Positions 1,382 to 41,678 of a stretch of DNA of 53,970 nucleotides are shown here, one piece after another. The notes below the pieces were generated by a model, which worked only from the letters and a program-made list of their open reading frames with translations, was not told where the DNA came from and made no database searches. A program made the translations under genes and the position numbers. This DNA is from a virus (Duplodnaviria > Caudoviricetes): positions 1 to 53,970 of the IMG/VR virus record IMGVR_UViG_3300023171_000016. The stretch is one strand, 5' to 3'. Numbering within the stretch: the stretch's first letter is position 1; each line of letters begins with the position of its first letter.

Positions 1382-1585
1382 ATGAAAAAAGCATTCAAGG
1401 TATTTTATTTCAGGGACAAAATGACGGATAAGCCTACAGTAAAGGCTTTCAGCGATTTGGTGGCACTAAAAGAAAACAGTGAAGTAACCAAGGCGCAAGT
1501 GAGTAGCCTCATTTCGGCAATGGAGCATGAAACAAAGGAAACAAAAAAGAAGCTCGAAACATACAGGGCTAAATTGAGCAAGTAA
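1382..1585 (+). CDS. small basic protein, first gene of the rightward operon (possible regulator)
   Basis: 67 aa, A-rich leader, directly after the promoter; the function is inferred from position only. Confidence 0.65.
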   Translation: MKKAFKVFYFRDKMTDKPTVKAFSDLVALKENSEVTKAQVSSLISAMEHETKETKKKLETYRAKLSK

Positions 1586-1619
1586 CCCCATTCCTCACCC
1601 GCGAAAAAGCAAAGATAAA

Positions 1620-1820
1620 ATGAGCACAGAAAACGAAGTAAAGCAGACGGTAGACCGCGCTATATCTGAGATAACAGACACTATCAGGCAGATAAAGCCT
1701 GATGTTTCGGAAAGAGAAATATGGATTGTGCAGTCACAAATAAGGAGCCTATGCCAGAGCGTGATTTTAGACATAGGCAATGCAACTATTTCACTAACCA
1801 ATGCAACCAAGAGCATATGA
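1620..1820 (+). CDS. hypothetical protein
   Basis: ORF in the coupled operon. Confidence 0.65.
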   Translation: MSTENEVKQTVDRAISEITDTIRQIKPDVSEREIWIVQSQIRSLCQSVILDIGNATISLTNATKSI

Positions 1821-1990
1821 CCCCCAAAGAAAAAGTACTACAGGTGTGGCCGGATGCGGTAGCACAGAAGCGCGGTGTATTGTTTTACATACAGGACGGT
1901 CGGGACGGTGACGCAATAGGATTTTCCTTACAGTCCTTTGAATTAGCATGGCAGGACGCATTAAATCAACTTAAACAACAAACCACATGA
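1817..1990 (+). CDS. hypothetical protein (MTPKEKVLQVWPDA...)
   Basis: ATGA overlaps at both ends. Confidence 0.65.
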   Translation: MTPKEKVLQVWPDAVAQKRGVLFYIQDGRDGDAIGFSLQSFELAWQDALNQLKQQTT

Positions 1991-2217
1991 GAAACAAAGC
2001 AATGATGGGAGCGTTACTAATGGTTCCCGAAATGTTGATAGGTAATAGCCTTATGCAGACAGGCCCAACACCCATCAACCCCGCCGACATAGACGTGAGC
2101 GGCAGTAGTCCGAACGTGGTCAAGCTACACCCCTTCACAATCCACGACAAGACAATTCTTGCACCCGATAAAAAGGCTGCGAAGAAAATTTATAACAGGG
2201 AAAATAACAGAAAATGA
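1987..2217 (+). CDS. hypothetical protein
   Basis: Coupled ORF. Confidence 0.65.
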   Translation: MRNKAMMGALLMVPEMLIGNSLMQTGPTPINPADIDVSGSSPNVVKLHPFTIHDKTILAPDKKAAKKIYNRENNRK

Positions 2218-2546
2218 GAACATGTAAATGGTGCGGCGGGGTACTGGGCCGAGACTGCTATAATGAATACGACTGCGGGGCCGTTACTCAGTCCACGCAA
2301 CAGCAGCAGCAACAAGATCCGCCGATAAGGTGGATAAAGTCAAGTGAGCAGAACCCGCCTTTTGATATGCAAGTGCTTTGTTACTGCAAGATTTACGGCA
2401 GATACATTGGCAGTTACATTCAGGTGATAGGTGTGTATGGGAACTGGAGCAATGGTAAAGAAATGGGAATTCTACCGCCAATATACTGGATGCCTTTACC
2501 GCCAGCACCTAATGAAGAAATAGACTTAGATGATTTACCATTTTAA
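2214..2546 (+). CDS. DUF551-like protein with N-terminal Cys motif and acidic DDLPF tail
   Basis: WIKSSEQNPP...YWMPLPPAP motif. Confidence 0.7.
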   Translation: MRTCKWCGGVLGRDCYNEYDCGAVTQSTQQQQQQDPPIRWIKSSEQNPPFDMQVLCYCKIYGRYIGSYIQVIGVYGNWSNGKEMGILPPIYWMPLPPAPNEEIDLDDLPF

Positions 2547-2564
2547 AAACCACAAACTAAGCAA

Positions 2565-2978
2565 ATGACCACAGAGCAACTACTACAGCCAAGGTACGAG
2601 GTGATAGAGGATTACCCGAATAGCCCGTTTACCGTAGGGCAGATAATAGATTTTTCCGAGGCTCCAATGTTTCTGTCAGGGAACGTTACGGGCAACAAAA
2701 TGCAGGGAACGGATTTCTACGACAAATACCCCCACCTTTTCCGCCACCTTAAATGGCACGAACGGCGTAAGGCTGAGGAAATGCCCTTGTACCTGAAATG
2801 CACAGACGTGGAAGATATTAAAGATGGGGAAATAGTAAAAGTAGACAGGTGGGATTTCACAGAAAACGAGGTTTATCTTGACCACGATTATGTTTGCTCC
2901 CTGTACTTAGGCTACGACCTCGGCATAGAACCCGCCACCGAAACAGAATATCTCACATACTTAAATTCACAGAAATGA
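2565..2978 (+). CDS. hypothetical protein
   Basis: 137-aa ORF. Confidence 0.75.
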   Translation: MTTEQLLQPRYEVIEDYPNSPFTVGQIIDFSEAPMFLSGNVTGNKMQGTDFYDKYPHLFRHLKWHERRKAEEMPLYLKCTDVEDIKDGEIVKVDRWDFTENEVYLDHDYVCSLYLGYDLGIEPATETEYLTYLNSQK

Positions 2979-3160
2979 TACTGAAAAGAATAGCCATAAT
3001 AGCAGAATTATCGGACGGCACATATAGGCAGGTAGCCGCCAAAGAAGAAGAACTGACGGTCATTATGCACACGCTGAATGCACTACATGACGGCACCGTT
3101 AAAATCATGCCTACTACACTATCTATAACATTTGAAAAACCTTACCCATGCACAAAATAA
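2975..3160 (+). CDS. hypothetical protein (MILKRIAII...)
   Basis: ATGA coupling with the upstream gene. Confidence 0.6.
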   Translation: MILKRIAIIAELSDGTYRQVAAKEEELTVIMHTLNALHDGTVKIMPTTLSITFEKPYPCTK

Positions 3161-3510
3161 CAACAGGCAACGGCGATTTTCTATTTGTGGGGGTGCCGGA
3201 AGATGTGAAGCCGGAAACCATCAACACACGCACTACAGGCTACCTGCATTACAGGACAGAATCGTGTTCGTCTACCTGGTCACATGTAACACTCCCGCCC
3301 GGCTCATACCCCCTCATAGCCGACACCGCTACGATAACAGAGGAACAGGCGGGAATGATAGTTGAATTAGAAACGGGCATTATGTGCGCATGGTACACTG
3401 ACTACGATAATGGGCCTGTTGGATTTTTCGGCTATGCACTTGAATCCTTCGCCTCCCTCCTTCGCTCCAATCAACTCACTGGCAGATATGCCATTTTAAA
3501 AATCACATAA
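3148..3510 (+). CDS. hypothetical protein
   Basis: 120-aa ORF. Confidence 0.7.
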   Translation: MHKITTGNGDFLFVGVPEDVKPETINTRTTGYLHYRTESCSSTWSHVTLPPGSYPLIADTATITEEQAGMIVELETGIMCAWYTDYDNGPVGFFGYALESFASLLRSNQLTGRYAILKIT

Positions 3511-3779
3511 TGAAAAAGAGAAGATACAAGATAGAATACAAATCGAATTGGGTAAGCGCAAAAGACAGAATGCCGGAAAACTCAGGGCATTACCTATGCT
3601 TCACGAATGACGAACTGATTATAACATGCTTTGTCGCTGTTAATGGCTGGTGGTCAATTGTGCCGGGTGCCGAGGCTTATGGGGATATGGGCAAGCGAAT
3701 AGTTATTGACAGCAAATTTACTGAACGAGAAGTAACACATTGGCAACCATTGCCGCCACCACCAAAACACACCACATGA
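3510..3779 (+). CDS. DUF551-like protein
   Basis: WVSAKDRMPE...VTHWQPLPPPP motif. Confidence 0.75.
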   Translation: MKKRRYKIEYKSNWVSAKDRMPENSGHYLCFTNDELIITCFVAVNGWWSIVPGAEAYGDMGKRIVIDSKFTEREVTHWQPLPPPPKHTT

Positions 3780-4111
3780 CCTACAACGAAAGACTACACC
3801 AGCTGGCCGAGAAAATGGCGGCCGCTGAGCATAACGCCGAATTTGAAAAGGGCAAGTACACCTCCGACCATGCCACATGGAAAGAATTAGCGATTAAGGA
3901 AGGGCTTGTAAGCATAGTAGAAAACGAATACAAATACTATCTGCCCGTTGCCCGTCTTGCTCTGGCTGAAATGGCGGATGCTGTACGTAAGCTGTTTGAA
4001 AAGAACCACACAGACAGTGACGGGGACTACAACACGTTCTATGAGCCTGAATTACAGCATTATTTACAATCACACGGACTTGTGCCGGGTAAAAACGAAA
4101 CAAATGAGTAG
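3776..4111 (+). CDS. hypothetical protein (MTYNERL...)
   Basis: ATGA coupling. Confidence 0.7.
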   Translation: MTYNERLHQLAEKMAAAEHNAEFEKGKYTSDHATWKELAIKEGLVSIVENEYKYYLPVARLALAEMADAVRKLFEKNHTDSDGDYNTFYEPELQHYLQSHGLVPGKNETNE

Positions 4112-4261
4112 AAAACATCGTAAAAACTGCAAGAAACACCTAATGCGCCCCGTGGAATACAGACATTGCTACGTAAGCGTTTACAGCCGCAAAACCTACG
4201 AAATGCTGTATGATAAGGACTGGAATTATCACCCATTTTAATCACACTTAAAAAACCAAAA

Positions 4262-4747
4262 ATGAATAACGAATTGAGAATGGCGGCGTTTGGGGCGTAC
4301 CCGAATGCAACCGCAATAGGACAGGATGAGCGTAACCCGCATTTCCCTGCCGATACAGGCAAGATAGTAGAGCTGGCAGCCTACAAAGCCACTATAGACA
4401 ACAATGGCGAATACTACGAGTTTATACCGGATGAGGTGAAGCTCCTACTTACGCCTTTGTCCCGCATAACGGATGAGCATGCGATTGAGGTGGCGAAGCT
4501 GGCGGATATATCGGAGGCAGAAAGAAAATATCGGCATGGCTGGAACGATTACGATAATTACGAAAGGATAGGCAAGGAAATCGCACAAGACCTGATTGAA
4601 GATTATGGCGACCCTTGCAAGGTAGGCGCAAAAAATGCTGTCGCAATTGTCGACTACCTACGCTCCAAAAGTTACCTGCTCCCATTTCGAGGCGTAGACC
4701 TCATAGCGGCTGGTATAGCTGTTGAAAAGGGGGTGGGTGATGAGTGA
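4262..4747 (+). CDS. hypothetical protein, YopX-like
   Basis: KLLLTPLSRIT...DYLRSK..LPF pattern. Confidence 0.6.
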   Translation: MNNELRMAAFGAYPNATAIGQDERNPHFPADTGKIVELAAYKATIDNNGEYYEFIPDEVKLLLTPLSRITDEHAIEVAKLADISEAERKYRHGWNDYDNYERIGKEIAQDLIEDYGDPCKVGAKNAVAIVDYLRSKSYLLPFRGVDLIAAGIAVEKGVGDE

Positions 4748-5036
4748 GCAACTACTTTCCGCAGCCGAGGTCTACGCAGACTACAGCGTTTTTGACCTTA
4801 ACGGACACCTGTTTTCTAACAACAATGACGAGGCGGCTAATGCTATTAAATGCAGCACAGAATCATTCACCGCTGGCGCACAGTGGGCTGACCCGATAGG
4901 GTTTGCGGAATGGCTACTTACGCCTGATTGCAGGGCATACAGGGAGCTTGGGACATTCAATTGGACCATGGTTGACACCGGGGAAAATGTATCGACACAA
5001 CAACTATTCACAATCTTCAAAAAACAGCAGCAATGA
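4740..5036 (+). CDS. hypothetical protein
   Basis: FTAGAQWA motif, typical of phage early proteins. Confidence 0.65.
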   Translation: MSEQLLSAAEVYADYSVFDLNGHLFSNNNDEAANAIKCSTESFTAGAQWADPIGFAEWLLTPDCRAYRELGTFNWTMVDTGENVSTQQLFTIFKKQQQ

Positions 5037-5386
5037 GTAAAGTACTAACCGCCACGCTAAAAAAGCAGTGGTACGATATGACCTTGAGCGGGGTTAAAAA
5101 AGAGGAGTACAGGGAGATAAAGCCGTATTGGATAAGGCGGCTGGTTAGGACATCGTGGCTAGAGCAAACACCGGAAGGCGAATGGACTATTGACCCAGCG
5201 GAATACGAAGACATAGCGTTTATTCCCTTCACACACACCCATTTCACCAACGGCTACGGGAAACACCGCCCTTCAATGCTTATAGAATGCAAGGGCATAC
5301 GAATAGGCATCGGCAGACCGGAATGGGGCGCACCCGATTACCCTGTATTCATTATTGAGCATGGGGGTATTATAACAACCAACTAA
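5033..5386 (+). CDS. ASCH/PUA-like domain protein
   Basis: LKKQWYDMTLSGVKKEEYREIKPYW...FTNGYG motif. Confidence 0.8.
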   Translation: MSKVLTATLKKQWYDMTLSGVKKEEYREIKPYWIRRLVRTSWLEQTPEGEWTIDPAEYEDIAFIPFTHTHFTNGYGKHRPSMLIECKGIRIGIGRPEWGAPDYPVFIIEHGGIITTN

Positions 5387-5424
5387 TTTTTAACCAGTGC
5401 AAATGCACTAAAATTGATAGAAAA

Positions 5425-5847
5425 ATGTCATTCGAAATAAACACCGAAGAAAAGACAATAACAGTACTGAAAGACTGTTCAACTTGCCAGCACCTAAAAG
5501 TATGCAGGTTTCACAAGGAGATAAGTGACGTAACAAAAACCAATGACTTTTATTCAATAGTAACCTATGCTGAATGGAATAACGCATTGGCTGTTTTTGA
5601 AAAACACGCATCATGTAGCCACTTCTTGTATAAATATAATGTAGGCCAAACAGTTTCGCTCGAATCTGCACCTGAAATAATAGAGAAAGTAATCAGGCTG
5701 ATGGGCGCATATTCATGGAGTTCTGACTTTAAAAAGAACAATTCGTGTTCCGTCAAAAACGTATTGGGAGACAAATTAGACGCCAAAGTAAGCGACTTAC
5801 TGGAAAACTCAAAATATTTTATAGCCGATAAAATTAAATCTAGATAA
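5425..5847 (+). CDS. hypothetical protein with CxxCxHxxxC motif
   Basis: 140-aa ORF. Confidence 0.65.
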   Translation: MSFEINTEEKTITVLKDCSTCQHLKVCRFHKEISDVTKTNDFYSIVTYAEWNNALAVFEKHASCSHFLYKYNVGQTVSLESAPEIIEKVIRLMGAYSWSSDFKKNNSCSVKNVLGDKLDAKVSDLLENSKYFIADKIKSR

Positions 5848-5848
5848 T

Positions 5849-6379
5849 ATGCCTAAATCATACGTAATACTCACCCCCGGCGCAAGTGCTGTGGTTAGTT
5901 TGGTGAAGCCGCAGCCGGTACGCACAGGGTTGCTAAGGAATGTACAGATGATGTCGTACAATGGAAAGCAGGTATATGCTTCTGAACTAACTAAGTTTGC
6001 CCCCTACGCCATCGGCCAGCGAGTGGCGGCGAAGGAAAAGTGGGGCGAAGTATACGAGATTGTTGAAGGGAAAAGAATACACGTTGCCTATATCTATGAT
6101 TCAGACAAAGGGAATGAACAGTATTCCGAGTATCATTTTGATGATTACCGTTCCCCCGTCACCATGCCGCTATCAGCCGTGCGCAGGTGGTTGGTTGTTG
6201 AGAGCGTGGAGTGTTTGAGGGTGAAGGATGTGACGAATTTTGTCGAATTAGGGGTATCAGGCAACGACAGAGAGGAAATGTTTACCAATTTCCCCGCGAC
6301 CATCATAAAGAAACACGGCCCCGCCGCATGGGACGACAACGCATATATTTTTCTAACCACTTTTAAGGATGAACAATGA
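5849..6379 (+). CDS. hypothetical phage protein (ASCH-related family)
   Basis: PY.IGQR...KE.W and SPVTMP...R.WL.V..V...RV.D patterns. Confidence 0.6.
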   Translation: MPKSYVILTPGASAVVSLVKPQPVRTGLLRNVQMMSYNGKQVYASELTKFAPYAIGQRVAAKEKWGEVYEIVEGKRIHVAYIYDSDKGNEQYSEYHFDDYRSPVTMPLSAVRRWLVVESVECLRVKDVTNFVELGVSGNDREEMFTNFPATIIKKHGPAAWDDNAYIFLTTFKDEQ

Positions 6380-6765
6380 CAAAGAAAACACGGCAACAGG
6401 TACACGATAAGTTTGGCGGCAGGTGCGCTTATTGCGGGTGTGAGCTAACCAAAGGTTGGCATGTAGACCACGTGCTGCCGATAAACAGAGTGTTGAAAAG
6501 GTCAGATAAGGGACTATACACAGATAGTGAATGCGAACACCCTGAACGCAACACAGAGGATAATTATTACCCCTCATGCGCTTCGTGCAACATGATGAAG
6601 ACAAATGCGCCGATAGAGCATTTCAGAGGCGTAATAGCGGCCTTCATGCAAAGCCTCAACAAGTATAGCCCGCAATACAGGTTCGCAAAGAGATACGGGC
6701 TTATTGAGGAAACGGCAAAACCTGTGGTATTCTATTTTGAAACGTATAAAACCGAGCAGCAATGA
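6376..6765 (+). CDS. HNH endonuclease
   Basis: GRCAYCG...WHVDHVLP...N..PSCASCNMMK. Confidence 0.9.
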   Translation: MTKKTRQQVHDKFGGRCAYCGCELTKGWHVDHVLPINRVLKRSDKGLYTDSECEHPERNTEDNYYPSCASCNMMKTNAPIEHFRGVIAAFMQSLNKYSPQYRFAKRYGLIEETAKPVVFYFETYKTEQQ

Positions 6766-6909
6766 GCATAGACCAGCAGATAGCAATTATTGAATCGCTC
6801 ATACACAAACAGGCGTGCGATATAATGTATGGCGGATTGAAGCACGCAGACCATTTCGAGTTGATTTTGAAACGGAGGAAATTATTGATAACTAAACAAA
6901 CCACACAAG

Positions 6910-7296
6910 ATGAAAAGAGTTAACAAAGAAACGGCCGTAGGGCTGAAAGAGGTGGGGTACGATGTGCCGTGTAAGCCGCATTATTATGGGCCTGAATGTA
7001 AGGCGTACTATAAGGTAGTATCATCCGTGAATCACAACAAATTCCCTTTGTGCGTTTCTGCCCCCGACCTGAATGAAGCCGCTGAATGGTTACGTGACGT
7101 GAAGGGCTTGCACATATCCGCACAACCGGACATCAACTACCTGCCTAAAAAATGGGTCTATGAGCTGTTTATGCTGAACGGCACAGAATGGAGTTTAGGC
7201 GATAGCCATAGCACATACGACACCCACGACATAGCCCTTGCCGCTGGAATTTCCCGTGCGGTTGACATTTTAAAAGAGCGCACCAATGGCAAATAA
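6910..7296 (+). CDS. hypothetical protein
   Basis: SAP.L.EAAEWLRDVKGLHI motif typical of Bacteroidota phage early genes. Confidence 0.7.
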   Translation: MKRVNKETAVGLKEVGYDVPCKPHYYGPECKAYYKVVSSVNHNKFPLCVSAPDLNEAAEWLRDVKGLHISAQPDINYLPKKWVYELFMLNGTEWSLGDSHSTYDTHDIALAAGISRAVDILKERTNGK

Positions 7297-7594
7297 ATGG
7301 ATAATTACTAACGGGCAGTTTCGCATGGCATCTGCTATTGACTTTCACAGAGAGTTGGCAGACGACATTAAGACCGTAATAGGCGGTGGATGGTGGCACT
7401 TAGTTCATGCCGAAAAGAAACTATACCTATACGGCACATCCGACGAGTTTGGCCCATGTAGCGAGGAGCAAGTAAGGCAGTCCATTGAGCAGTATATGTC
7501 GCCAAGGCTACTTGGCTATAAGGTATATCTATCAAGCGGACTAACCGTATCCGATGCGGTTTTTAAAGGGTCCTTTATAGGAGAAATAATGTAA
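7286..7594 (+). CDS. hypothetical protein
   Basis: 102-aa ORF with GGGWW and LYG.S.EFG motifs. Confidence 0.7.
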   Translation: MANKWIITNGQFRMASAIDFHRELADDIKTVIGGGWWHLVHAEKKLYLYGTSDEFGPCSEEQVRQSIEQYMSPRLLGYKVYLSSGLTVSDAVFKGSFIGEIM

Positions 7595-7653
7595 TTCACT
7601 CACCGGCACCTATGTTGCCATAACCACCTGCGATAAGGCGCAGTAATAATAAG

Positions 7654-7935
7654 ATGAAAAACAGATACGAAAGCAGCGAAGTTTTTACGGCATACGCCAC
7701 AATGGATGCGGGTTATTATATGCTACAGCAGTTGTTATTGAAGCTGAATAAGCCACGAAGCCCGATTGAATCTGCCGTAGATAAAGCATGCGGATATAAC
7801 GAAAACATTGAGATTGCAAAGGAGGCAATTGTTATCCTAAAAGACATAATAGAAGCAAAGGCTATCGCCGAGGTTGACGATACTGGCGACGTTCAGATGC
7901 TCAACAATTTACAGAATTTCATCACTAACAACTAA
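7654..7935 (+). CDS. hypothetical protein
   Basis: 93-aa ORF. Confidence 0.7.
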   Translation: MKNRYESSEVFTAYATMDAGYYMLQQLLLKLNKPRSPIESAVDKACGYNENIEIAKEAIVILKDIIEAKAIAEVDDTGDVQMLNNLQNFITNN

Positions 7936-7958
7936 ACAACCGCTGGAGGCGGGGGATT

Positions 7959-8243
7959 ATGAAAAAGGGAATATACAGACTATGTTTTTCGGCAGGCAGG
8001 AGCGGACACCTGCACGGAATATTTATAGCAACTAAAACAGCCGTTGACGACCTTGTTAAGTCTGAAAATGTAATACATTTTGGCGAAGTATTGGGCAAGC
8101 ACTCTGAGGTTTACGGCCCTATAGACAAAGGAGAAATAACGCTTGTTACCAATGACAAAACCGCCGTAGATGCGTTTAGTAAGTTCAAAATGGAAACAGG
8201 GTATAATCCATTCAACTACTTACATCAGGACGAAGACGAGTAA
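7959..8243 (+). CDS. hypothetical protein
   Basis: FGEVLGKHSEVYG...GYNPF motif. Confidence 0.7.
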   Translation: MKKGIYRLCFSAGRSGHLHGIFIATKTAVDDLVKSENVIHFGEVLGKHSEVYGPIDKGEITLVTNDKTAVDAFSKFKMETGYNPFNYLHQDEDE

Positions 8244-8293
8244 CTAACCCCACGGGTGCCGCAAATCGTGGCACCTGTTTAAAAACAAAACTT

Positions 8294-8506
8294 ATGACAC
8301 AGGAACAAGCAATTGAAGCCGTTGAAGATGCAGACATAAGTACATCCGGCTGGCTCGATGTAATAATTGAGCAGATAAGCGACAAGTACGCACAGGGTTA
8401 TTTGACCTGTTTTCTCGAAAACTTATCCGGCAGATTATCGGCAACTTACGAAGAATATAGAGAAGAAGTTTTAGAAGCACTTGAATATGATATTTGGGGT
8501 AAGTAA
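8294..8506 (+). CDS. acidic hypothetical protein
   Basis: 70 aa, A-rich leader. Confidence 0.65.
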   Translation: MTQEQAIEAVEDADISTSGWLDVIIEQISDKYAQGYLTCFLENLSGRLSATYEEYREEVLEALEYDIWGK

Positions 8507-8509
8507 CAG

Positions 8510-8530
8510 ACGGGGCCGAAATGGCCCCGT
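8510..8530. terminator. Terminator hairpin between the convergent arms
   Basis: ACGGGGCC-gaaat-GGCCCCGT between stop codons at 8506 and 8535. Confidence 0.75.
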
Positions 8531-8534
8531 TCCT

Positions 8535-9041
8535 TTACCCTATAAACCCCACTAATTTCGGGTCGTCTAACCTTCGTGTACGTCTGCATACCATGCCGCC
8601 GGTACGGCTCCCGTTCGCATCGGTATTGCCTTCTATTGTCACCATTACGCCACCATCTACAGATACTACTATGCCGGTATGGCCTAATCCTTTGCCATAA
8701 TCCATAATGAATATGTAGCCCGGTAAAATAGTGGCGTTTTTAGGCTTACGCATGTGTTGTGGAGCATTACGCCATCCGTTCAATACGCCGCCTGTTTTGT
8801 GCAAAGGATTGGCTACATGGAGGATTTCGGCAGCTTCATTGAAGCATCGGTAAACAAAGGCCATACACCAAGCATTATTTTTGCCAAGTCCCACCGTTTT
8901 CAGGCATGCTTCGACAAACGGCCCGGCATTGCTACCCGCTGGAATTTCCTTTTTGCCGATGTATGTTGTAGCTATCTGTAGTGCCGTTTCTGCCAGCGAT
9001 AACGGCAGGGTTACGGATTGATTTTGTGTTTCTGTGTTCAT
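8535..9041 (-). CDS. CHAP-domain endolysin
   Basis: AWCMAFV...GHTGIV...TIEGNT catalytic Cys/His motifs. Confidence 0.85.
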   Translation of the reverse strand: MNTETQNQSVTLPLSLAETALQIATTYIGKKEIPAGSNAGPFVEACLKTVGLGKNNAWCMAFVYRCFNEAAEILHVANPLHKTGGVLNGWRNAPQHMRKPKNATILPGYIFIMDYGKGLGHTGIVVSVDGGVMVTIEGNTDANGSRTGGMVCRRTRRLDDPKLVGFIG

Positions 9042-9118
9042 GGTGTATATTTGTGGCTACTTTCCGTGTTCTTATTACCTACACCCCGTAATCCCCATAC
9101 TTGCGGGGTGTATTATTT
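9023..9118 (+). ncRNA. Putative antisense small RNA with its own promoter and terminator hairpin
   Basis: TTTG-N19-TATATTTG (9023-9053); 12-bp hairpin 9080-9112 followed by a T-rich tail; no ORF. Confidence 0.5.
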
Positions 9119-9242
9119 AATATAATATCCACGCAAAAGTTGTACATAATTTTAGGGCAAAAGTTGTAGATTAAATCAGGCGGGATTTCTACCCGCAGCC
9201 CCGTCTTTGCCGGACGGTATATTTAGCTTTTCTACGACTGAT

Positions 9243-9605
9243 TTATGCCAACACCTGTTTATTATCCTCAAACACCTTTTCAAACAGTTCGCCGTACTTT
9301 TCGCTTTCAAGACGGTGTTCGTCAATATGGGCTATCATGCGTGTTGCTATTTCCTTTGCCACACGCTTACGCTCCCGTGATGTGGCTGCACCTTCAAGAC
9401 GTTCTTTCAGGGCATTCAGGGCCACAATCAGGGCCAGCCTCAATGCTTCGTCTTTATCGCCCGGTATGACCTGTGTAACGATTATTGCGCCCTTACTTTC
9501 TGCCAGCCACAGCAGCTTAGTCGTCACCTGCAATACCTTTTCTGATATGCGGCGGATTGATGCGGGGACAGCCCCGAAAGCGAGCATTAGTTTACGAAGG
9601 AACAT
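9243..9605 (-). CDS. hypothetical protein (possibly lysis-associated)
   Basis: 120 aa, upstream of the endolysin. Confidence 0.65.
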   Translation of the reverse strand: MFLRKLMLAFGAVPASIRRISEKVLQVTTKLLWLAESKGAIIVTQVIPGDKDEALRLALIVALNALKERLEGAATSRERKRVAKEIATRMIAHIDEHRLESEKYGELFEKVFEDNKQVLA

Positions 9606-9703
9606 ATGATACCGATTATTAGTAGTGAGGTAATTACGATGCCAAGTATTGTTCGGCTCGCTGTCTTATCTGGTGGTGGCACTTTGCCGATGTTGTCTAA
9701 CAT
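9587..9703 (-). CDS. 38-aa single-TM peptide, probably leaderless
   Basis: ATG 4 nt after TATCTTTA (9708-9715); hydrophobic C-terminus. Confidence 0.45.
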   Translation of the reverse strand: MLDNIGKVPPPDKTASRTILGIVITSLLIIGIICSFVN

Positions 9704-9767
9704 GTTGTAAAGATAAGTAATTAATTCACACAAAAAAGGCCCACACGTGTCAAGGTGCAGGCCGTTC

Positions 9768-9809
9768 ACTGCCTCGCTGAAAACTTTGCGAGAAAACAGC
9801 GGGAGTTAG
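9768..9809. repeat. 42-bp 3'-UTR element, copy 1
   Basis: Matches 11248-11289 with one mismatch. Confidence 0.9.
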
Positions 9810-10255
9810 ATAAATATTATGTTGCCCATTCTGTGCATTTCAATGTCACCTGCGCCAAAAATAGCCATCCATTTAGCTTTATCCGCCTTAAATTCGGCAA
9901 ATGTGGTAGCATGTTCAGCCGCAAATTCGGCGCACTCATCAATGGTTGAAAAAACAGGTGTTATAGGCGTACCCTCTGTGGTTGTTTCGTAACCCTGAAA
10001 ATGGGTACACAATTCCGCGTCTTTTGGGTCATATGGCAGATAAGAAGAAACACACGGCGCATCGCCCCCATATTCTGCATAATACTTATAATCGCTGTCT
10101 TGTTCAGGGTGTTCGCGTTTACTCCAAAGGTCGTTGTTTTTCAGCCATTCAGCTAATGCCGCTGCGTAGCTTTCATTGTACATAGGAATATATTTCCCGT
10201 AACTGTCTTGTGGGTGTTTCCAATTGGCCGGAACTCTCCTTAATTCTCTTCCCAT
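9806..10255 (-). CDS. hypothetical protein (MGRELRRVPANWKHP...), independent transcription unit
   Basis: Promoter TATCTTTG 10293-10300 upstream; terminator at about 9732-9763 downstream; start moved to 10255. Confidence 0.8.
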   Translation of the reverse strand: MGRELRRVPANWKHPQDSYGKYIPMYNESYAAALAEWLKNNDLWSKREHPEQDSDYKYYAEYGGDAPCVSSYLPYDPKDAELCTHFQGYETTTEGTPITPVFSTIDECAEFAAEHATTFAEFKADKAKWMAIFGAGDIEMHRMGNIIFI

Positions 10256-10355
10256 TTTTTCGCAAAGTTTTTCACCGCTACCTGCGGCCCGACAAAGATA
10301 CACAAAAAAGCCCCACCTTTCGGCAGGGCAGTACGCGTAGGGAACATTCACGAAC

Positions 10356-11183
10356 CTACGGTAGTAAGTTAAGGCATTCGGCGTAGTGGTTGGCGGTTTC
10401 TACTGCTTGATTGCGCTCTGTTGCAAAGTGGTTGTGTGCTGATTTTACCAGTTCGGCGAGTGTAAATGCCCGCTCTGTATTGGTAAGGTCTGCGAGAATG
10501 TTTTCTATTCGGTGAATAGGCTTTTTCTCTTGCTCCGAAAGCAGCATGTCCAACACATGTGCATCATATTCGTTGCGCTCCGCTTTCGCCTTCAATTCCA
10601 CAATTTCGGCGGTAAGTTCATTTATCTGTTCTGCTGCGGTGGTCAGCGTACGTTTGTTAAATGCAACCTCTTTTTGTAGTTCTGTATTGATAGTACACCA
10701 CCCGTTAATCCCTTTTTTCAATTCTGCATTATCCGCACTTAGTTCTGCAATCGTTTCATCTTTACCTGAATCCTGTGCATGTAGTTGTTCGATGTACGTG
10801 CGCCTGTCTGCAAGCGTAGCCGTAAGCCCGTCTATTTCTGCTTTCAGGTCTGCGCGGCTGCCTATCGCTTCGTCAAGCTGGCAGTTGAGGGAATTGATAG
10901 CAGAGTTACATTTTTCAATGTGTACACTAAGCCCTTCAATAGTTTTGTCCTTTTCCCTTACTGCTGCGTGTAGCGGAGCAACATCGGCACGTAGTTTATC
11001 TCGCTCATTGAACAACCCTTTCATAATATTTTCCGCTTCGTCTACTTGATTTCCGAGGGAGGAAATGGTTATTTTGTTCGATTCAAGTTTCGCCGCCTGC
11101 TTGTTGCTCTGTGCCAACTGTGCTTTAACCAGCCCTTCCAACTCCTTTACCCTCGATAATAACTGTGCATTTGTCTGTTTCAT
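10356..11183 (-). CDS. long coiled-coil protein, independent unit
   Basis: Heptad-rich sequence; TACCTTTA 11209-11216; terminator at about 10304-10329. Confidence 0.8.
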   Translation of the reverse strand: MKQTNAQLLSRVKELEGLVKAQLAQSNKQAAKLESNKITISSLGNQVDEAENIMKGLFNERDKLRADVAPLHAAVREKDKTIEGLSVHIEKCNSAINSLNCQLDEAIGSRADLKAEIDGLTATLADRRTYIEQLHAQDSGKDETIAELSADNAELKKGINGWCTINTELQKEVAFNKRTLTTAAEQINELTAEIVELKAKAERNEYDAHVLDMLLSEQEKKPIHRIENILADLTNTERAFTLAELVKSAHNHFATERNQAVETANHYAECLNLLP

Positions 11184-11247
11184 TTTGTGAATGTTTTTTT
11201 GTGAGGGGTAAAGGTAATAAAAAAGGCCCACAGTTGTGAGCCTTAGT

Positions 11248-11289
11248 ACTGCCTCGCTGATAACTTTGCGAGAAAACAGCGGGAGTTAG
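11248..11289. repeat. 42-bp 3'-UTR element, copy 2
   Basis: Matches 9768-9809. Confidence 0.9.
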
Positions 11290-11558
11290 TCGGTAGATAC
11301 CGTACAATATTGGAATACCAGACTATTTGCAGCATGGTTAAACTCCATGTTGTTCAGGCCGCTATTCGTTAACTCATTGAATATCCTGTTAGGAACCACC
11401 GTAGCCAACGCATGCATAAACATGGTGAATTTCTGGTCATCGTTTAGGTCTTCCTGTGGTATGTGAAAGTCATTGTCTTCTTCAAACACCTGTGCAATTG
11501 CTCCGTACAGCTTAACTGCGTACTGAAAAATTTGGTCTTGCTTCTCTTGATGTGTCAT
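11286..11558 (-). CDS. hypothetical protein (MTHQEKQDQ...), independent unit
   Basis: TACCTTTA 11598-11605; terminator at about 11219-11243. Confidence 0.75.
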   Translation of the reverse strand: MTHQEKQDQIFQYAVKLYGAIAQVFEEDNDFHIPQEDLNDDQKFTMFMHALATVVPNRIFNELTNSGLNNMEFNHAANSLVFQYCTVSTD

Positions 11559-11639
11559 TTTTTTTCGCAAAGTTTATCCGGCAACATTACCGGACGGTAA
11601 AGGTAATAAACTTTCCGCAATTTCCGGTTAGTTGGTGTA

Positions 11640-11778
11640 AAATGAGTAACGCCGCATCGGAGCGGCGTTAGACTTTCATTGAATCGTTTTTTGCTCCTGC
11701 GCCGACAACACGATATTGCTTAGGCTTGGGGACTCGAACCCCGCTGCACCGATAACCTACTTACTTTCGGTTTGAGGC
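11640..11778 (-). ncRNA. Putative small RNA containing a tRNA T-arm-like hairpin
   Basis: Promoter TACCTTTG 11781-11788; GGGG-TTCGAGT-CCCC at 11728-11742; terminal 9-bp hairpin 11647-11670. Confidence 0.5.
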
Positions 11779-11855
11779 TACAAAGGTAGTAACGTTTTTG
11801 ACACTACCAAACATTTCTGCATAATTTACTTTCAGGGGTGGCGGTGGGTTGCTTT

Positions 11856-11966
11856 AAACAAAAAAGGGCATAACGAATCGTTACCCCCTTTCAAATCCAC
11901 CATGTTATGCTGACCGGGCGGATACTCTAAACCAAAACATCGAAGTAGATGCAATAGCGTAGTGCG
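11856..11966 (-). ncRNA. Putative small RNA / mini-ORF unit
   Basis: Promoter TATATTTG 11970-11977; terminator hairpin plus U-tract at about 11856-11891. Confidence 0.45.
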
Positions 11967-11988
11967 CCACAAATATACAACTTTCCAT

Positions 11989-12018
11989 AAACAAAACACC
12001 CGCCACGTGGACGGGTGT
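11989..12018 (-). terminator. Intrinsic terminator of the tRNA operon
   Basis: ACACCCG...CGGGTGT followed by TTTGTTT right after tRNA-Tyr. Confidence 0.75.
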
Positions 12019-12022
12019 AAAG

Positions 12023-12106
12023 TCGAAGTAGAGGGATTCGAACCCCCGAAGCCATAAGGCGGCTGATTTACAGTCCACCCGTTTTATCCATCTTACCTAT
12101 ACTCCG
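12023..12106 (-). tRNA. tRNA-Tyr(GTA), long variable arm, atypical C1-G72 pair
   Basis: Acceptor CGGAGTA/TACTTCG-A, loop CTGTAAA, T arm GGGGG-TTCGAAT-CCCTC; weak D and anticodon stems. Confidence 0.8.
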
Positions 12107-12112
12107 ATTTTG

Positions 12113-12185
12113 TGGGAACGGTTGGGGTCGAACCAACATCTAAGGTTTTTCAGACCTTCGCTAAGACCGCATCAGCTACGCTCCC
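12113..12185 (-). tRNA. tRNA-Phe(GAA)
   Basis: GGGAGCG/CGTTCCC-A; AAGGT-CTGAAAA-ACCTT; GTTGG-TTCGACC-CCAAC. Confidence 0.93.
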
Positions 12186-12191
12186 ATAATG

Positions 12192-12262
12192 TACCCCCAC
12201 ATGGAATTGAACCATGATCATCCGGTTAAAAGCCGGTAGCTCTGCCGTTGAGCTATAAGGGT
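12192..12262 (-). tRNA. tRNA-Lys(TTT)
   Basis: ACCCTTA/TGGGGGT-A; GCTC/GAGC D stem; CCGG-CTTTTAA-CCGG; CATGG-TTCAATT-CCATG. Confidence 0.92.
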
Positions 12263-12268
12263 ATTTTG

Positions 12269-12341
12269 CACGCACCCAGAGAATCGAACTCTGCCAAATG
12301 GTTTTGGAGACCTTTTCGCCATCCTTGGGACATTGGCACGT
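12269..12341 (-). tRNA. tRNA-Trp(CCA)
   Basis: ACGTGCC/GGTGCGT-G; GGT-CTCCAAA-ACC; CAGAG-TTCGATT-CTCTG. Confidence 0.88.
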
Positions 12342-12343
12342 AT

Positions 12344-12380
12344 AAAAACAAAAATCCCGCTTAGTTTTCACCAAGCGGGA
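12344..12380 (-). terminator. Intrinsic terminator (attenuator 3:4 stem) immediately upstream of the tRNA operon
   Basis: TCCCGCTTGGT-GAAA-ACTAAGCGGGA followed by TTTTTGTTTTT. Confidence 0.85.
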
Positions 12381-12403
12381 CACTATTATGTTTAACAAAA
12401 TAG

Positions 12404-12463
12404 CTATCGCTTGGTAACGTTTCCGTACCAATAACTAAAGCTAAAATGTTTCGTTGTATTCAT
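12404..12463 (-). CDS. Putative attenuator leader peptide MNTTKHFSFSYWYGNVTKR
   Basis: ATG 4 nt after the -7 element; 7 of 19 codons are Lys/Phe/Tyr/Trp; overlaps alternative hairpins. Confidence 0.75.
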   Translation of the reverse strand: MNTTKHFSFSYWYGNVTKR

Positions 12464-12467
12464 GCCA

Positions 12468-12498
12468 CAAATGTACTACTATTTTTCAATTCACCAAA
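12468..12498 (-). promoter_or_regulatory. Promoter of the tRNA operon
   Basis: TTTG(12495-12498)-N19-TACATTTG(12468-12475). Confidence 0.8.
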
Positions 12499-12744
12499 TT
12501 ATATCCCAATATCCTCCATTCCCGTATCAGTCAGCCCGAAAAACTTTATAGTGTAGTGCATTAGCGTGGTGCCTATAGTCATGCCTGTTACTATCTGATA
12601 TTTCAGGTGTTCCGGTATGCCGGGCAGCATGGTTAGCACGATAGCAATTGCGCCGTTAATGAATGAGAAAATGCGAAAGGCTAATTTCAGCCCTTTCGGC
12701 GTGGGGTTGTTCACCTGTGCAACTCCGAATTTAATGTCTGCCAT
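12499..12744 (-). CDS. small 2-TM membrane protein (holin-like)
   Basis: Two hydrophobic segments; PTPK motif before the first TM. Confidence 0.6.
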   Translation of the reverse strand: MADIKFGVAQVNNPTPKGLKLAFRIFSFINGAIAIVLTMLPGIPEHLKYQIVTGMTIGTTLMHYTIKFFGLTDTGMEDIGI

Positions 12745-12747
12745 ATT

Positions 12748-13089
12748 TTACGGTTTATCCTTAATTTCTAATCTTGTTACTTTCGCCAGTACGCCCCGCC
12801 AGTCTATCAGCTTTAGGAATATCATTATGTCGCGGCTTGCAAGGGTAGCGACCGGCACGCAATATGCGCCAGCCTCAGGTGCATGTGCAAGGAACCACTT
12901 ACTTGTAATGAAACCTACGAAAATACCCATAAAGCTGGTGCCGAGAATATACAATCGGGTTATGCGCTTCTTATTGATTATATCCAGCCCAAAAGTACCT
13001 ACAAGCCCTATAAGGACGTAGGCAAACCATGCTCCGTACTTCGTTAGCACGTCTAAAGTTTCTTGGTAGAGTGTTTGTCTGTTTGACAT
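12748..13089 (-). CDS. putative holin
   Basis: 2-3 TM segments and a basic C-terminus; start moved to MSNRQ. Confidence 0.6.
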   Translation of the reverse strand: MSNRQTLYQETLDVLTKYGAWFAYVLIGLVGTFGLDIINKKRITRLYILGTSFMGIFVGFITSKWFLAHAPEAGAYCVPVATLASRDIMIFLKLIDWRGVLAKVTRLEIKDKP

Positions 13090-24208: not shown

Positions 24209-26035
24209 TTATTCGTTAACTTTTACTACTGTTTCTGTTGTTTCCGGTGGTTCCGGCTTTTCAATGGTGTCGTTCTCTTTTTTTACCAGTGCTTCAATTT
24301 CATCATACGGAGCATTCACAAACCATATTGTACCGCGCTCACGCTTTATTTTGTCAAGTATGGTAGGCAGGTTATTGCTGAATGAAAACGCATCTATTGT
24401 GATTGCATTACTTGCCAGCATTGCCGATTTTTCTATCATTGGAGTAACAGCGAACGGGTCCATTTGGTTGATAAGTGACACCTTTCGCTTCATGTAATCA
24501 CTGCCGCCAAAAACCTTATCAACGTACTGCTCAAGCTGCTTTTTAATCACGTATTCCGGTATGTCTGCGTCTTTGCTTTCCTTCATTTCTTCCAGCAAAT
24601 CAAACTCCGTTTTAAGCGCAAAATCAGTAGGCTTCACTAACTCATATTGCGGTATTTCCGGCTTACGCTCTCCGTCCGTTACTTGGGTATGCCGGATAGA
24701 TAACACGTCAATTAAGCACGATTCTATAAGATTCCACACACCATTACTTACCATTGACCGGTACAGGTATTCAGCCTCTCGGTCTATTTCTTTTGCTTTG
24801 CCGCTTTGCGCTTCGTCTATGGTCTGTTGGTGAAGGGAGCTTTTAATACCTGCTTTTATAAGGTCTGCCGTTTCTTGTAGATGCTTGTTGATGTTAACAT
24901 CGAAGTTGATTATTTTAAGCAACTCCTTATCTGCCATATCTTTCGGCACCATTACCCGCTGGCCGGGATTGAAAGACATTATGAACTTTGCGCCGTTACA
25001 GTCGGGGCAAGCAATTCGTGAAAAGTCTTTATTTTCAGATTCGCATACGCACTGGCTGCCTTTATGGTGGCACGTGTTACAAAACTGTACCTCCCCGTGC
25101 GCATTGCAGCCGGGGCAATCTGTCTGCACCATCTGAATAAATGGAAAACACGCCTCTTTATTTACCATCTGCACGTCACTGTGTGCAGAAACAAAGTCAT
25201 CACAAAATGGCAATGCAGCCTTTAGATAGCTGTCATAGTAACGCAACGTATTCCATATTCCGCCTGCAATATGTATAGGCTTACGGTTCAGCAAGTGTGC
25301 ATAATATCCATCGTCCACGCCATCAGCATTTACATATGTCTTACCGTCCTCCTCTCGCTTAAACCTGAAATATCCGGTATCAGTAATCCACCACGCATAC
25401 TGCCTATCTGAAAATGGTTCGTAATAAACTACTTCATCTTCGCTTATGTATAGTATTTCGGCAGAAGGTATATGTATGATTTCAGGCTCTACCATTGTGC
25501 CGGTTTCTTTGCGGCTTACTTTTGGCTTCACCACAAACAGACTGTTAGGGTCTTCGCATATGGCTTTAAACATCCACTCGAAATACCCTACAAACGTTTT
25601 ACCTGAAAAGTTTTTCCCGTCTATATACTTTTGGTCTTCTGTGTCTGATATCAGCAGTGTGTATTTGCTGTCGCCAAAAATACACGCTGACAGGCTATTG
25701 ATAGCTTCCAGCAGTGGGGCCATTTGATACGGCCTGTAAACAGACTTACGGTATTCCCTTGTTATCTGTGGTTCGCGGGGATATCGGTTAAGCAGGTAGG
25801 TATCGAATATTAAATCGTAATTAGCATTTATCCACCATGTAGGCGTAGTTTGTGCTGTGCCTAATGCGTAACCGCTTGTTTCATTATACCGCAATGGGTA
25901 GAACCTCGGACACGTACCTGTGGTATGTATCGAGGTTCTATAAAATATATTCTGCCACTGTATAAGGAAAGGTTGCAGGGCAAAACTGCCGTTAAGCATA
26001 CTTAAAACTTCTGTTTGGCTACGAGCCATAATCAC
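24209..26035 (-). CDS. putative portal protein with a Cys-rich zinc-finger insertion
   Basis: 608 aa; AQSGKAKEID portal-like motif; CPGC...CNTC...CPDCNG insert; upstream of scaffold and capsid. Confidence 0.75.
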   Translation of the reverse strand: MIMARSQTEVLSMLNGSFALQPFLIQWQNIFYRTSIHTTGTCPRFYPLRYNETSGYALGTAQTTPTWWINANYDLIFDTYLLNRYPREPQITREYRKSVYRPYQMAPLLEAINSLSACIFGDSKYTLLISDTEDQKYIDGKNFSGKTFVGYFEWMFKAICEDPNSLFVVKPKVSRKETGTMVEPEIIHIPSAEILYISEDEVVYYEPFSDRQYAWWITDTGYFRFKREEDGKTYVNADGVDDGYYAHLLNRKPIHIAGGIWNTLRYYDSYLKAALPFCDDFVSAHSDVQMVNKEACFPFIQMVQTDCPGCNAHGEVQFCNTCHHKGSQCVCESENKDFSRIACPDCNGAKFIMSFNPGQRVMVPKDMADKELLKIINFDVNINKHLQETADLIKAGIKSSLHQQTIDEAQSGKAKEIDREAEYLYRSMVSNGVWNLIESCLIDVLSIRHTQVTDGERKPEIPQYELVKPTDFALKTEFDLLEEMKESKDADIPEYVIKKQLEQYVDKVFGGSDYMKRKVSLINQMDPFAVTPMIEKSAMLASNAITIDAFSFSNNLPTILDKIKRERGTIWFVNAPYDEIEALVKKENDTIEKPEPPETTETVVKVNE

Positions 26036-40340: not shown

Positions 40341-41678
40341 CTACTTTTTCAATAACTTCAAATATGTATCGCGTATGTATTGCAAAAAGTACGTTTGCAG
40401 CAAGTAGCGCATGCCATCAAAGTAATCCATCTTGTAGTTATCCCTGTCCTTTAGCAACTGCGAACCCTTAACACTTTTCTGGTCTACAGTCGCCTTTCGC
40501 ATATCAGCTATCAGCGTCACACAGCACGGGTCAACATACACGGGGTAATGCTCAAAAACGGCATTACACAGCAACCGGCTATCTGCATGTTCCAAATTGG
40601 CGGTGTTAAGGTTCATTTGCCTATCAGATAGCCCCAACAATGCCTGAATCATTTGGTAAATAGTCTGGTTGCGGCCCACGTCCTGATTTTGCCCCGAACG
40701 GTCTCCGGTAACGTACAGTATACTATTTGGAAATGCGGTTAGTATGTGATTGCAAATGTCATCTACTTTGATATGCCCACCAAATTCACGTATTGCGTGC
40801 AGGAAATTACCGCCGCCGCCCCGCTGTCGTGACATCTGCCAAGCAGTGCAGCTCAAGGGGTCGGCGTTAATATCGAATGTTAGGTAAACGGGTTCCGATT
40901 GTAGGAATGGGAGTTTTCGAATGTGTGAACGCTTATCGTATTCATCCCTGAACGCATACAGCCAAGGGTATTCATTTAGGTTAATATCCCAATTTCCTTT
41001 AACGTATATCTCATACTGCACCGTAGGCAGATTTGCAAGAGAAGCCATGTAATCGGCATCAGCAGTAATGAATGGGTTATCGGTAATAAGAGCAGGTATG
41101 TACATGAAGTCATCCGGCAATGTGCCTGCCTTCCATCGGTCGTACAATAGCGTTTTAACCCATGACCACGAAGGGTTACAGGTCATCAACACCAGAGGCT
41201 TAGGCTTCACGCATCCAATAGGCGGTATATGAGAACCGGCACGTTCTATTGCCTTCCAAAAAGACACTTCCTGTAGTTCGTTAGCCTCTTCCAACAGGAA
41301 ACCGTTTACTTCAAGACCCTTCCATCTGTTCAACTCCTTATCGTCATCGAAATTTTCAGAAAAGAAAATAATCTGTGACCCATTTCGGAATGTAACAGTT
41401 TGCGTGTCCTGATTGTATTTTGTAATAAAGTTGGTGGGTACTATTTTGTTGAATGACGGTATAGTATTGCGCTTCAACGTTTGCAGGCTATCCCTGACTA
41501 TTGCCCATCGTGTATTAGGGTAAACCTTAGCCAGCAAAATAAGCGTACCTAGTCCGCAAAATGTCTTACCTGAGCGTATGCCGCCACCGTAAAGTATGTA
41601 TTTGTGCTGTTTATCAAATGCGGCCTCAATAAACTTTTGCTGCTTCGGGAAAGCATCGAATAGGATTTGATTAGCCAC
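40341..41678 (-). CDS. terL: terminase large subunit
   Basis: YGGGIRSGKT Walker A, LLEEANE Walker B, TCNP, DNP; nuclease FD...GD...D. Confidence 0.93.
   Translation of the reverse strand: MANQILFDAFPKQQKFIEAAFDKQHKYILYGGGIRSGKTFCGLGTLILLAKVYPNTRWAIVRDSLQTLKRNTIPSFNKIVPTNFITKYNQDTQTVTFRNGSQIIFFSENFDDDKELNRWKGLEVNGFLLEEANELQEVSFWKAIERAGSHIPPIGCVKPKPLVLMTCNPSWSWVKTLLYDRWKAGTLPDDFMYIPALITDNPFITADADYMASLANLPTVQYEIYVKGNWDINLNEYPWLYAFRDEYDKRSHIRKLPFLQSEPVYLTFDINADPLSCTAWQMSRQRGGGGNFLHAIREFGGHIKVDDICNHILTAFPNSILYVTGDRSGQNQDVGRNQTIYQMIQALLGLSDRQMNLNTANLEHADSRLLCNAVFEHYPVYVDPCCVTLIADMRKATVDQKSVKGSQLLKDRDNYKMDYFDGMRYLLQTYFLQYIRDTYLKLLKK

Follow-up and report, generated by a model that had tools for sequence, protein, structure and literature searches.

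We analysed a 53,970-nucleotide (nt) stretch of Caudoviricetes DNA (IMG/VR virus record IMGVR_UViG_3300023171_000016, positions 1 to 53,970; hereafter the window) and found that three adjoining genes on its minus strand, located between a transfer RNA (tRNA) cluster (12022-12341) and the lysis end, each carry behind their stop codon a short sequence complementary to the leader of the same gene. This complementarity is real and lies far above chance. The evidence for it reduces to two independent events, a leader/3' pair that is duplicated in genes 1 and 3 and a second pair in gene 2. We give roughly even odds to the reading that, in each mRNA, the 5' and 3' untranslated regions (UTRs) pair in cis and occlude a translation initiation region that lacks a Shine-Dalgarno (SD) sequence.

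Complementary leader and 3' sequences in three tandem genes

Each of the three genes forms a unit of its own, comprising a promoter box, an open reading frame (ORF), a stem-loop, and a terminator. A first-pass annotation, made from the letters of this DNA alone, had described three promoter-ORF-terminator units here, and the features for which it gave coordinates are where it had placed them. The features on which the following analysis rests are these:

11286-11558, minus strand: gene 3, 90 amino acids (aa), an ORFan and the sole member of its cluster among 5.8 billion clusters
10356-11183, minus strand: gene 2, 275 aa, a coiled-coil protein with no family above the cut-off
9806-10255, minus strand: gene 1, 149 aa, a member of a widespread phage family with no assigned function
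11560-11578, minus strand: leader motif M of gene 3 (GATAAACTTTGCGAAAAAA), ending 1 nt short of the ATG
10255-10273, minus strand: leader motif M of gene 1 (GAAAAACTTTGCGAAAAAA), extending into the A of the ATG
11248-11289, minus strand: 3' element R3, which begins at the stop codon TAA and contains the reverse complement of M
9768-9809, minus strand: 3' element R1, 41/42 identical to R3, also containing the reverse complement of M
11187-11195, minus strand: gene 2 leader segment AACATTCAC, at -12 to -4 of the ATG
10336-10360, minus strand: gene 2 3' hairpin with stem CGTAGG/CCTACG, the stop codon TAG in its 5' arm and GTGAATGTT (10343-10351) in its loop
11598-11605, minus strand: -7-type box of gene 3 (TACCTTTA), 7/8 to TAnnTTTG; predicted start ~11593, 5' UTR ~35 nt
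11209-11216, minus strand: -7-type box of gene 2 (TACCTTTA); predicted start ~11204, 5' UTR ~21 nt
10293-10300, minus strand: -7 box of gene 1 (TATCTTTG), 8/8; predicted start ~10288, 5' UTR ~33 nt
11223-11244, minus strand: intrinsic terminator of gene 3
10310-10329, minus strand: intrinsic terminator of gene 2
9738-9763, minus strand: intrinsic terminator of gene 1

These sequences and positions are direct observations. The 42-nt repeat formed by R1 and R3, already pointed out in the first-pass annotation, starts exactly at the stop codon in both genes and ends a few bases before two different terminators. Near-identity of R1 and R3 behind two unrelated ORFs and ahead of two terminators suggests, at the level of sequence, a conserved module. 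Their sole difference (A/T) is mirrored by the sole difference between the two leaders. Gene 2 had been said to follow the same design with an unrelated sequence, and this holds as well. The 9-nt leader segment AACATTCAC is also read on the plus strand at 10343-10351, so that the gene 2 loop is complementary to the gene 2 leader. All three 3' copies fall inside the gap of ~45 nt between stop codon and terminator and, because they are placed before the terminator, on the same transcript as the ORF.

To the eye of a simple count, the shared motif is rare. The window contains just four exact copies of the 10-mer AACTTTGCGA, at 9782 and 11262 on the plus strand and at 10260 and 11565 on the minus strand, against an expectation of ~0.1 exact copies by our arithmetic (2 x 53970 / 4^10). 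When up to one mismatch was allowed, the shuffle test was not significant (six copies found, a mean of 4.44 in shuffles, and 29 of 100 shuffles reaching six). The longer, 18-nt form GAWAACTTTGCGARAAAA, searched with three mismatches or fewer, has five copies in the window and none further; the fifth lies at 8410-8427 on the minus strand.

We then applied one uniform rule to 82 ORFs, taking the longest perfect complement between each ORF's own leader (-25 to +6) and its own 3' sequence (stop codon to +42). The three genes, with complements of 12, 10, and 9 nt, occupied ranks 1-3 of 82, and the next best ORFs reached 8 and 7 nt, which confirms the earlier claim that all three 3' elements match their own leaders. 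The first-pass annotation had also proposed comparing 3' UTRs with all start regions. In that comparison the cognate pairs stood above the non-cognate ones, since only 29 of 6636 non-cognate pairs reached at least 9 nt, nine reached at least 10 nt, and one reached at least 12 nt. By duplex energy, the three genes ranked 1, 2, and 5 of 82 (z-scores of -5.5, -3.3, and -2.0), and windows tiled over the genome were equally good in 3/7704, 61/7704, and 33/7706 cases.

The leader motif would be present on the mRNA only if the TAYCTTTR boxes are promoters. The starts of genes 1-3 were derived from a box position of -12 to -5, where the Flavobacterium sigma-A box lies (PMC9723704). The resulting predicted leaders of 33, 21, and 35 nt, leader motif included, are of normal size for the phylum, in which the medians of the 5' UTR are 24 and 32 nt and leaders shorter than 10 nt make up 3.7-5.5% of mRNAs (PMC9723704, PMC7366714). 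A TAYCTTTR box stands right behind the preceding terminator in five consecutive units, the boxes of the neighbours being at 11788-11781 and 9715-9708. A -33 TTTG at a distance of ~19-21 nt is absent for genes 1-3, where the preceding terminator overlaps the site; it is present at the neighbouring unit (11781) and at 1355. This element is reported not to be general (PMC7366714). 

Across the window, SD sequences were not seen at the genes, leaders were A-rich at gene starts genome-wide, and TAnnTTTG boxes were common between genes, with a textbook TTTG-N20-TATATTTG arrangement at 1355. From the SD-less genes, the A-rich leaders, and the intergenic TAnnTTTG boxes, the host is most likely a member of Bacteroidota.

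Predicted folds and the pairing model

Full-length mRNAs were folded using the predicted starts and the terminator ends. In the minimum free energy (MFE) folds of all three, leader and 3' element are connected. The folding yields 22-28 expected 5'-3' pairs with a core probability of 0.9-1.0 in genes 1 and 3, and of ~0.3 in gene 2. Addition of the 3' UTR lowered the mean unpaired probability of positions -20 to +6 from 0.45 to 0.18 in gene 1, from 0.64 to 0.43 in gene 3, and from 0.80 to 0.64 in gene 2. The gene 1 helix reaches the start codon, and the A-run and AUG of gene 3 stay mostly open. Because the 3' element begins at the stop codon, the closed form would, in our own reading, place stop and start codons together.

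These folds are consistent with a model in which each gene is transcribed as its own short mRNA, from a Bacteroidota-type -7 box to its own intrinsic terminator. The 3' UTR, which starts at or over the stop codon, would hold a stretch of 9-17 nt able to pair with positions ~-20 to -4 of its own mRNA, and the target of this pairing would be the SD-less, A-rich translation initiation region. Once the 3' end is completed, both ends would pair, closing the mRNA and lowering ribosome access, which would favour the translation of nascent transcripts and curb that of finished ones. The paired ends may also form a target for double-stranded RNases or a shield against RNases. Genes 1 and 3 would share one portable pair, consisting of leader motif M and the 42-nt module R, and gene 2 would use its unrelated sequence in an identical layout. 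Initiation in Bacteroidota is tuned by mRNA structure and by upstream A residues (PMC6847099). Cis pairing of RNA would account for the position of the elements, for the layout common to two unrelated sequences, and for the retention of R behind unrelated ORFs. A single DNA motif is insufficient here, because two unrelated sequences have one layout.

Several observations weigh against this model. The transcription starts, the pairing in vivo, and the repressive effect are all things that we infer from in silico data. Motif M itself matches the -7 box at 7/8 positions (AAACTTTG); if M were a real promoter, transcription would start 2-4 nt before the ATG, M would be absent from the mRNA, and the pairing would be impossible. 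Beyond the ~18-nt core, complementarity is not above chance, as 54%, 4.7%, 20%, and 44% of windows were as good. Pairing energies of the mRNA and of the complementary strand were -33.3 and -30.3, -23.8 and -24.1 (gene 3), and -11.5 and -20.4 (gene 2) kcal/mol. The complementary strands would thus pair equally well, with no G-U strand bias, and there is no indication that selection acted on the minus-strand RNA and not on the DNA. In gene 2, the pairing amounts to only 9 A/U-rich base pairs (bp) at -11.5 kcal/mol, with a probability of ~0.3.

The local hairpins and the mirrored substitution also count on this side. A stem-loop had been proposed at each stop codon. Its position is correct, and its stability is only marginal: R1 has a z-score of -2.05 and its MFE structure is a different hairpin that buries part of the presumed loop, R3 has a z-score of -2.43, and the gene 2 hairpin has a z-score of -1.06, with 21 of 200 shuffles folding as well. 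The A/T difference had been read as a compensatory change. The mirroring is there, and it is weak evidence for compensation, since with two A and two T copies such an arrangement is expected in 1 of 3 cases if the position is merely degenerate. Self-silencing through 5'-3' pairing, the central proposal of the first-pass annotation, is partly supported: it keeps its complementarity, its probable placement on one transcript, and its predicted folds, and loses any support beyond the ~18-nt core.

Covariation could be judged in relatives carrying these cassettes, and none was found: the R pattern had 0 matches in viral contigs and 0 in metagenome contigs, which likewise weakens the model. The A/T position is thus the sole internal case of covariation. 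No relative of the portal protein was found in viral contigs, and metagenome contigs gave a single 45%-identical match on a contig of 4.6 kilobases (kb). The searches found no relatives of the gene 2 protein, and blastn against phage records matched only the tRNA region. For gene 1, we analysed 46 of 80 homologue loci, namely those with a near-complete match from residue 1-3, and left out 34 that were partial or near-duplicate. None of the 46 had a leader/3' complement of at least 9 nt, and the maximum was 8 nt, in one locus. Among 71 endolysin-related loci, at least 9 nt was reached by 9/789 cognate pairs (1.14%) versus 1.12% of 7320 non-cognate pairs, which is no enrichment. The description of the arrangement as a general self-silencing device is therefore too wide, given its absence from the gene 1 homologue loci and the lack of enrichment among the 789 ORFs.

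Three candidates were set aside. In the AT-rich viral contig L285, a terminator-like hairpin is flanked by the motif and its complement, but the contig looks unrelated; L289 and L282 are unrelated. 

As a separate observation, another contig of the same sample (15,968 nt, record 3 of DNA run X1), similar in depth (10.8 versus 12.3), holds an exact copy of the 18-nt gene 1 leader motif and, 6.2 kb from it, a 22/23 match to the gene 2 terminator. This contig could be a related phage.

Other explanations for the repeats

Motif M has a fifth copy in the window, in leader (minus-strand) orientation:

8407-8435: motif copy X, inside the plus-strand ORF 8294-8506, an ORFan

Copy X aligns with the entire gene 3 leader. 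Among the plus-strand RNAs of the genome, the one over X is this leader's best partner (-31.5 kcal/mol, with 2/2345 windows as good). The position of X inside an ORF of the opposite strand fits a DNA motif equally well, a further point against pairing of RNA in cis.

The best surviving alternative, which we nevertheless regard as unlikely, is that the 18-nt motif GAWAA(A)CTTTGCGARAAAA serves as a signal in the DNA, either as the operator of some regulator encoded by phage or host or as a weak promoter box of the AAnnTTTG type used in both orientations, and that the gene 2 match arose by chance. Such a signal would agree with there being exactly five copies, all within 3.2 kb, in both orientations, and one of them in an opposite-strand ORF. 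By our own reading, the motif contains two GAWAAC/GAAAAC half-sites 13 nt apart. Its core is 7/8 to TAnnTTTG, and similar AACTTTTGC boxes occur twice upstream of the endolysin gene. The flanks of the motif are non-complementary, and the two strands would pair equally well, as noted above. A DNA signal does not, however, explain the independent 9-nt inverted repeat of gene 2, a length seen in so few of the non-cognate pairs, nor the placement of both inverted copies exactly between stop codon and terminator. If M were a promoter, the leaders would be only 2-4 nt long, a class that falls within the 3.7-5.5% of phylum mRNAs with the shortest leaders (PMC9723704, PMC7366714). Scans of 81 window ORFs against Pfam or PHROGs revealed no DNA-binding regulator, and most of these ORFs have no family at all.

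We also considered whether the motif is a generic promoter string of the host and rejected this. The 18-mer leader pattern had at least 120 genome and 16 viral matches, which are taxonomically mixed and, among the matches listed (80 genome and 16 viral), mostly represent EKLCEK codons inside ORFs. The exact 18-mer is thus no common promoter string, which again tells against a DNA signal. In other phages, gene 1 homologues contain the letters of the motif as the codons of a conserved [DE]KLCE peptide. Exact 14-16-mers are present within homologue ORFs at 2558-2581 of locus L005 and 2827-2850 of locus L006 (both in the T form) and at 2833-2856 of locus L019 (in the A form), against a background in which 0.04% of window 16-mers match the 80 homologue loci. 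Gene 1 of the window itself reads IDECAEF at the [DE]KLCE position. To judge from these matches, the motif may have its origin in [DE]KLCE coding DNA; its function is not decided thereby.

These coding matches hint at copying from coding DNA and thus bear on a second alternative, that the inverted repeats act or acted in DNA recombination. An invertase could flip each ORF relative to a fixed promoter and terminator, or the repeats could be scars of cassette exchange without present function. We hold this to be quite improbable. Every ORF has an inverted repeat of its own on either side, beyond which lie promoter box and terminator, and the units are moron-like with unrelated origins. If the repeats recombined with each other, the members of each pair would stay alike, and this would explain the mirrored A/T difference. 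Against it, the same Pfam and PHROGs scans revealed no recombinase family among the 81 ORFs, although a host enzyme could act instead. The perfect cores are short (12, 10, and 9 bp), the members of a pair differ by a 1-nt indel, and the repeat is not located at the outer ends of a longer homologous stretch. The presentation of the 3' copy in a stem-loop is left unexplained. Two DNA runs were available, of which X1 carries the entire sequence and X2 only three 151-nt pieces; no variant letters and no recombination joints were seen in their assembled contigs, which are blind to minor forms. No RNA run is listed as containing the region.

Least probable of all, in our estimate, is a purely trans role, in which the 3' elements, and with them copy X of the plus-strand mRNA, would leave their own mRNA open and regulate the leaders as antisense RNAs, for example as processed 3'-UTR RNAs or through the last mRNA of the convergent operon. 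R1 and R3 do pair almost equally with either leader (-21.1/-21.2 and -28.0/-29.7 kcal/mol), and the X RNA would bind the gene 3 leader better than gene 3's own element does (-23.8 kcal/mol). Against this, neither processing nor separate small RNAs are in evidence, kinetics favour pairing in cis, and X lies inside an ORF, where it may be a chance match or a relic; for the gene 1 leader, 304/2345 windows are as good.

Known systems, gene products, and genome context

The first-pass annotation likened the arrangement to type I toxin mRNAs. At the hok/Sok and aapA1/IsoA1 loci, a 5'-3' fold-back keeps the full-length toxin mRNA inert until its 3' end is processed, and these loci encode small membrane toxins together with an antisense RNA antitoxin. 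End-to-end pairing would likewise close the full-length transcripts studied here over their translation start, according to the predicted folds, and to this extent the analogy stands in silico. In contrast to the small hydrophobic toxins, the products here have 90-275 aa and look soluble, and no toxicity is indicated. No antisense RNA antitoxin was recognised: Rfam over 8000-13000 gave only tRNAs and sub-threshold matches, and no plus-strand promoter-terminator unit was seen over the three genes in a search that was not exhaustive. The locus is not a type I toxin locus.

The suggestion that the proteins are possibly toxic also finds no support, as no family or fold match points to toxins. Neither Pfam nor PHROG families were found for genes 1 and 3, and their Atlas matches are only hypothetical viral clusters. 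The start codon of gene 1 is fixed by the family, 21 of 21 aligned members of which begin with MGRE or MSRE. Its predicted structure is a soluble alpha/beta protein with a predicted local distance difference test (pLDDT) score of 85.9, and comparison of the model with the PDB returned nothing at E<=0.001. 

The gene 1 frame stays open for 73 codons past the UAA (9587-9808, minus strand), through R1, the terminator, and the next promoter box, into a small ORF. By our arithmetic, an open extension of this length has a chance expectation of ~3%.

Phage morons are promoter-ORF-terminator units inserted between phage genes. Like morons, the three genes each come with a promoter-like box and an intrinsic terminator of their own, their origins appear unrelated, and they lie between the tRNA cluster and the lysis genes. 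On this sequence evidence, we regard the three units as moron-like and unrelated in origin. Unlike the present case, the moron concept is silent on matched 5' and 3' UTRs.

Pairing of an mRNA's own 5' UTR with its 3' UTR is, to our knowledge, described for only a handful of bacterial transcripts, and a literature search of limited breadth found no phage example. The Staphylococcus aureus icaR mRNA has a 3' UTR that pairs with the SD region of the same mRNA (PMC3868564). As in icaR, the 3' UTR here holds a short motif complementary to the region where ribosomes bind the same mRNA, with a predicted block of initiation and a substrate for double-stranded RNase (PMC3868564). The icaR 3' UTR is long (the paper deals with those of >100 nt) and carries an anti-SD-like UCCCCUG motif (PMC3868564), whereas the 3' UTRs described here measure ~75-85 nt with the terminator and target an A-rich leader without SD. 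The setting also differs, being a phage with three tandem genes and two sequence solutions, known from sequence alone. In the hbs mRNA of Bacillus subtilis, a 14-bp interaction that joins the 5' UTR to the 3' UTR modulates cleavage by RNase Y (PMC5737220). The long-range helix predicted here is of similar length (12-17 bp) and likewise connects the UTRs of a short monocistronic mRNA; it lies nearer the start codon than in hbs, where the pairing shields the leader from cleavage and stabilises the mRNA (PMC5737220). 

Pairing between the UTRs of one mRNA is thus already known from icaR, hbs, and hok. What differs here, in silico, is the phage setting, the three tandem instances, and the two sequence solutions. 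If the cis pairing model is true, three adjacent cases with two unrelated sequences would mean that the principle is modular and that arbitrary genes can be fitted with it. The pairing would also reveal a way of limiting expression in Bacteroidota-type systems that dispense with SD sequences and rely on an open A-rich leader, and the 42-nt module with its 18-nt partner would be a small part for the control of gene dose. Should the motif instead act as a site in the DNA or as a repeat used in recombination, the locus would count as an ordinary junction of the regulatory or mosaic kind. 

A bolder version, to which we give little credence, goes further. The ~18-nt leader motif and the 42-nt stop-to-terminator module, with the independent version in gene 2, would form a portable two-part RNA device that can be attached to unrelated accessory ORFs and would make every such mRNA fold shut when finished, and copy X, a third copy directed against a leader, in the last gene of the convergent plus-strand operon, would let that mRNA silence gene 3 in trans. 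Such a device would time translation where SD sequences are lacking, would be modular and sequence-addressable, and would set the start codon beside the stop codon at the base of the helix.

The genome comes from an uncultured phage of a leaf-litter metagenome and has a GC (guanine plus cytosine) content of 45%. Its terminal overlap marks a whole circular or terminally redundant phage genome. Plus-strand genes span 1382-8506, and all genes at 8535-53803 are on the minus strand. The following features were recognised, those of the proteins by family scans:

1-126, repeated at 53840-53965: 126-nt terminal overlap of a complete genome of ~53.8 kb, in a record rated 100% complete
48513-49733: PAPS-reductase-like protein
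43337-44746 and 46410-47882: helicases
41680-42171: small terminase
40341-41186: large terminase, a weak match
24209-26029: portal
12022-12341: four tRNA genes (Tyr, Phe, Lys, Trp), between two terminators
8535-9041, minus strand: CHAP endolysin

No integrase, repressor, recombinase, or RNA chaperone was recognised in the Pfam and PHROGs scans of the window, and the lack of the first two left no sign of a temperate lifestyle in these scans. Only tRNAs passed the Rfam threshold over 8000-13000.

Four smaller features were noticed near the three genes. A small unit without an ORF occupies 11640-11810 on the minus strand, with a canonical TTTG-N19-TACCTTTG promoter (box at 11788-11781) and a terminator at 11670-11647. 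The ~130 nt between the two contain a tRNA-like T-arm (GGGGTTCGAGTCCCC); the unit was called by neither ARAGORN nor Rfam, and its fold was no better than those of shuffles. On the plus strand at 9046-9120, a strong hairpin with a U-rich tail (z-score of -4.1) comes after an TATATTTG box (9046-9053). This arrangement could yield an RNA of ~60 nt antisense to the endolysin leader, and the minus-strand leader itself holds the same hairpin. A tandem pair of TACAACTTTTGC boxes, whose core resembles that of the motif, is located at 9133-9165 (minus strand), ~100-130 nt upstream of the endolysin ATG. Finally, within 9590-9715 on the minus strand, a 38-codon ORF with a hydrophobic stretch starts only 4 nt behind an TATCTTTA box, so that its mRNA would be leaderless; it overlaps the start of the ORF at 9243-9605.

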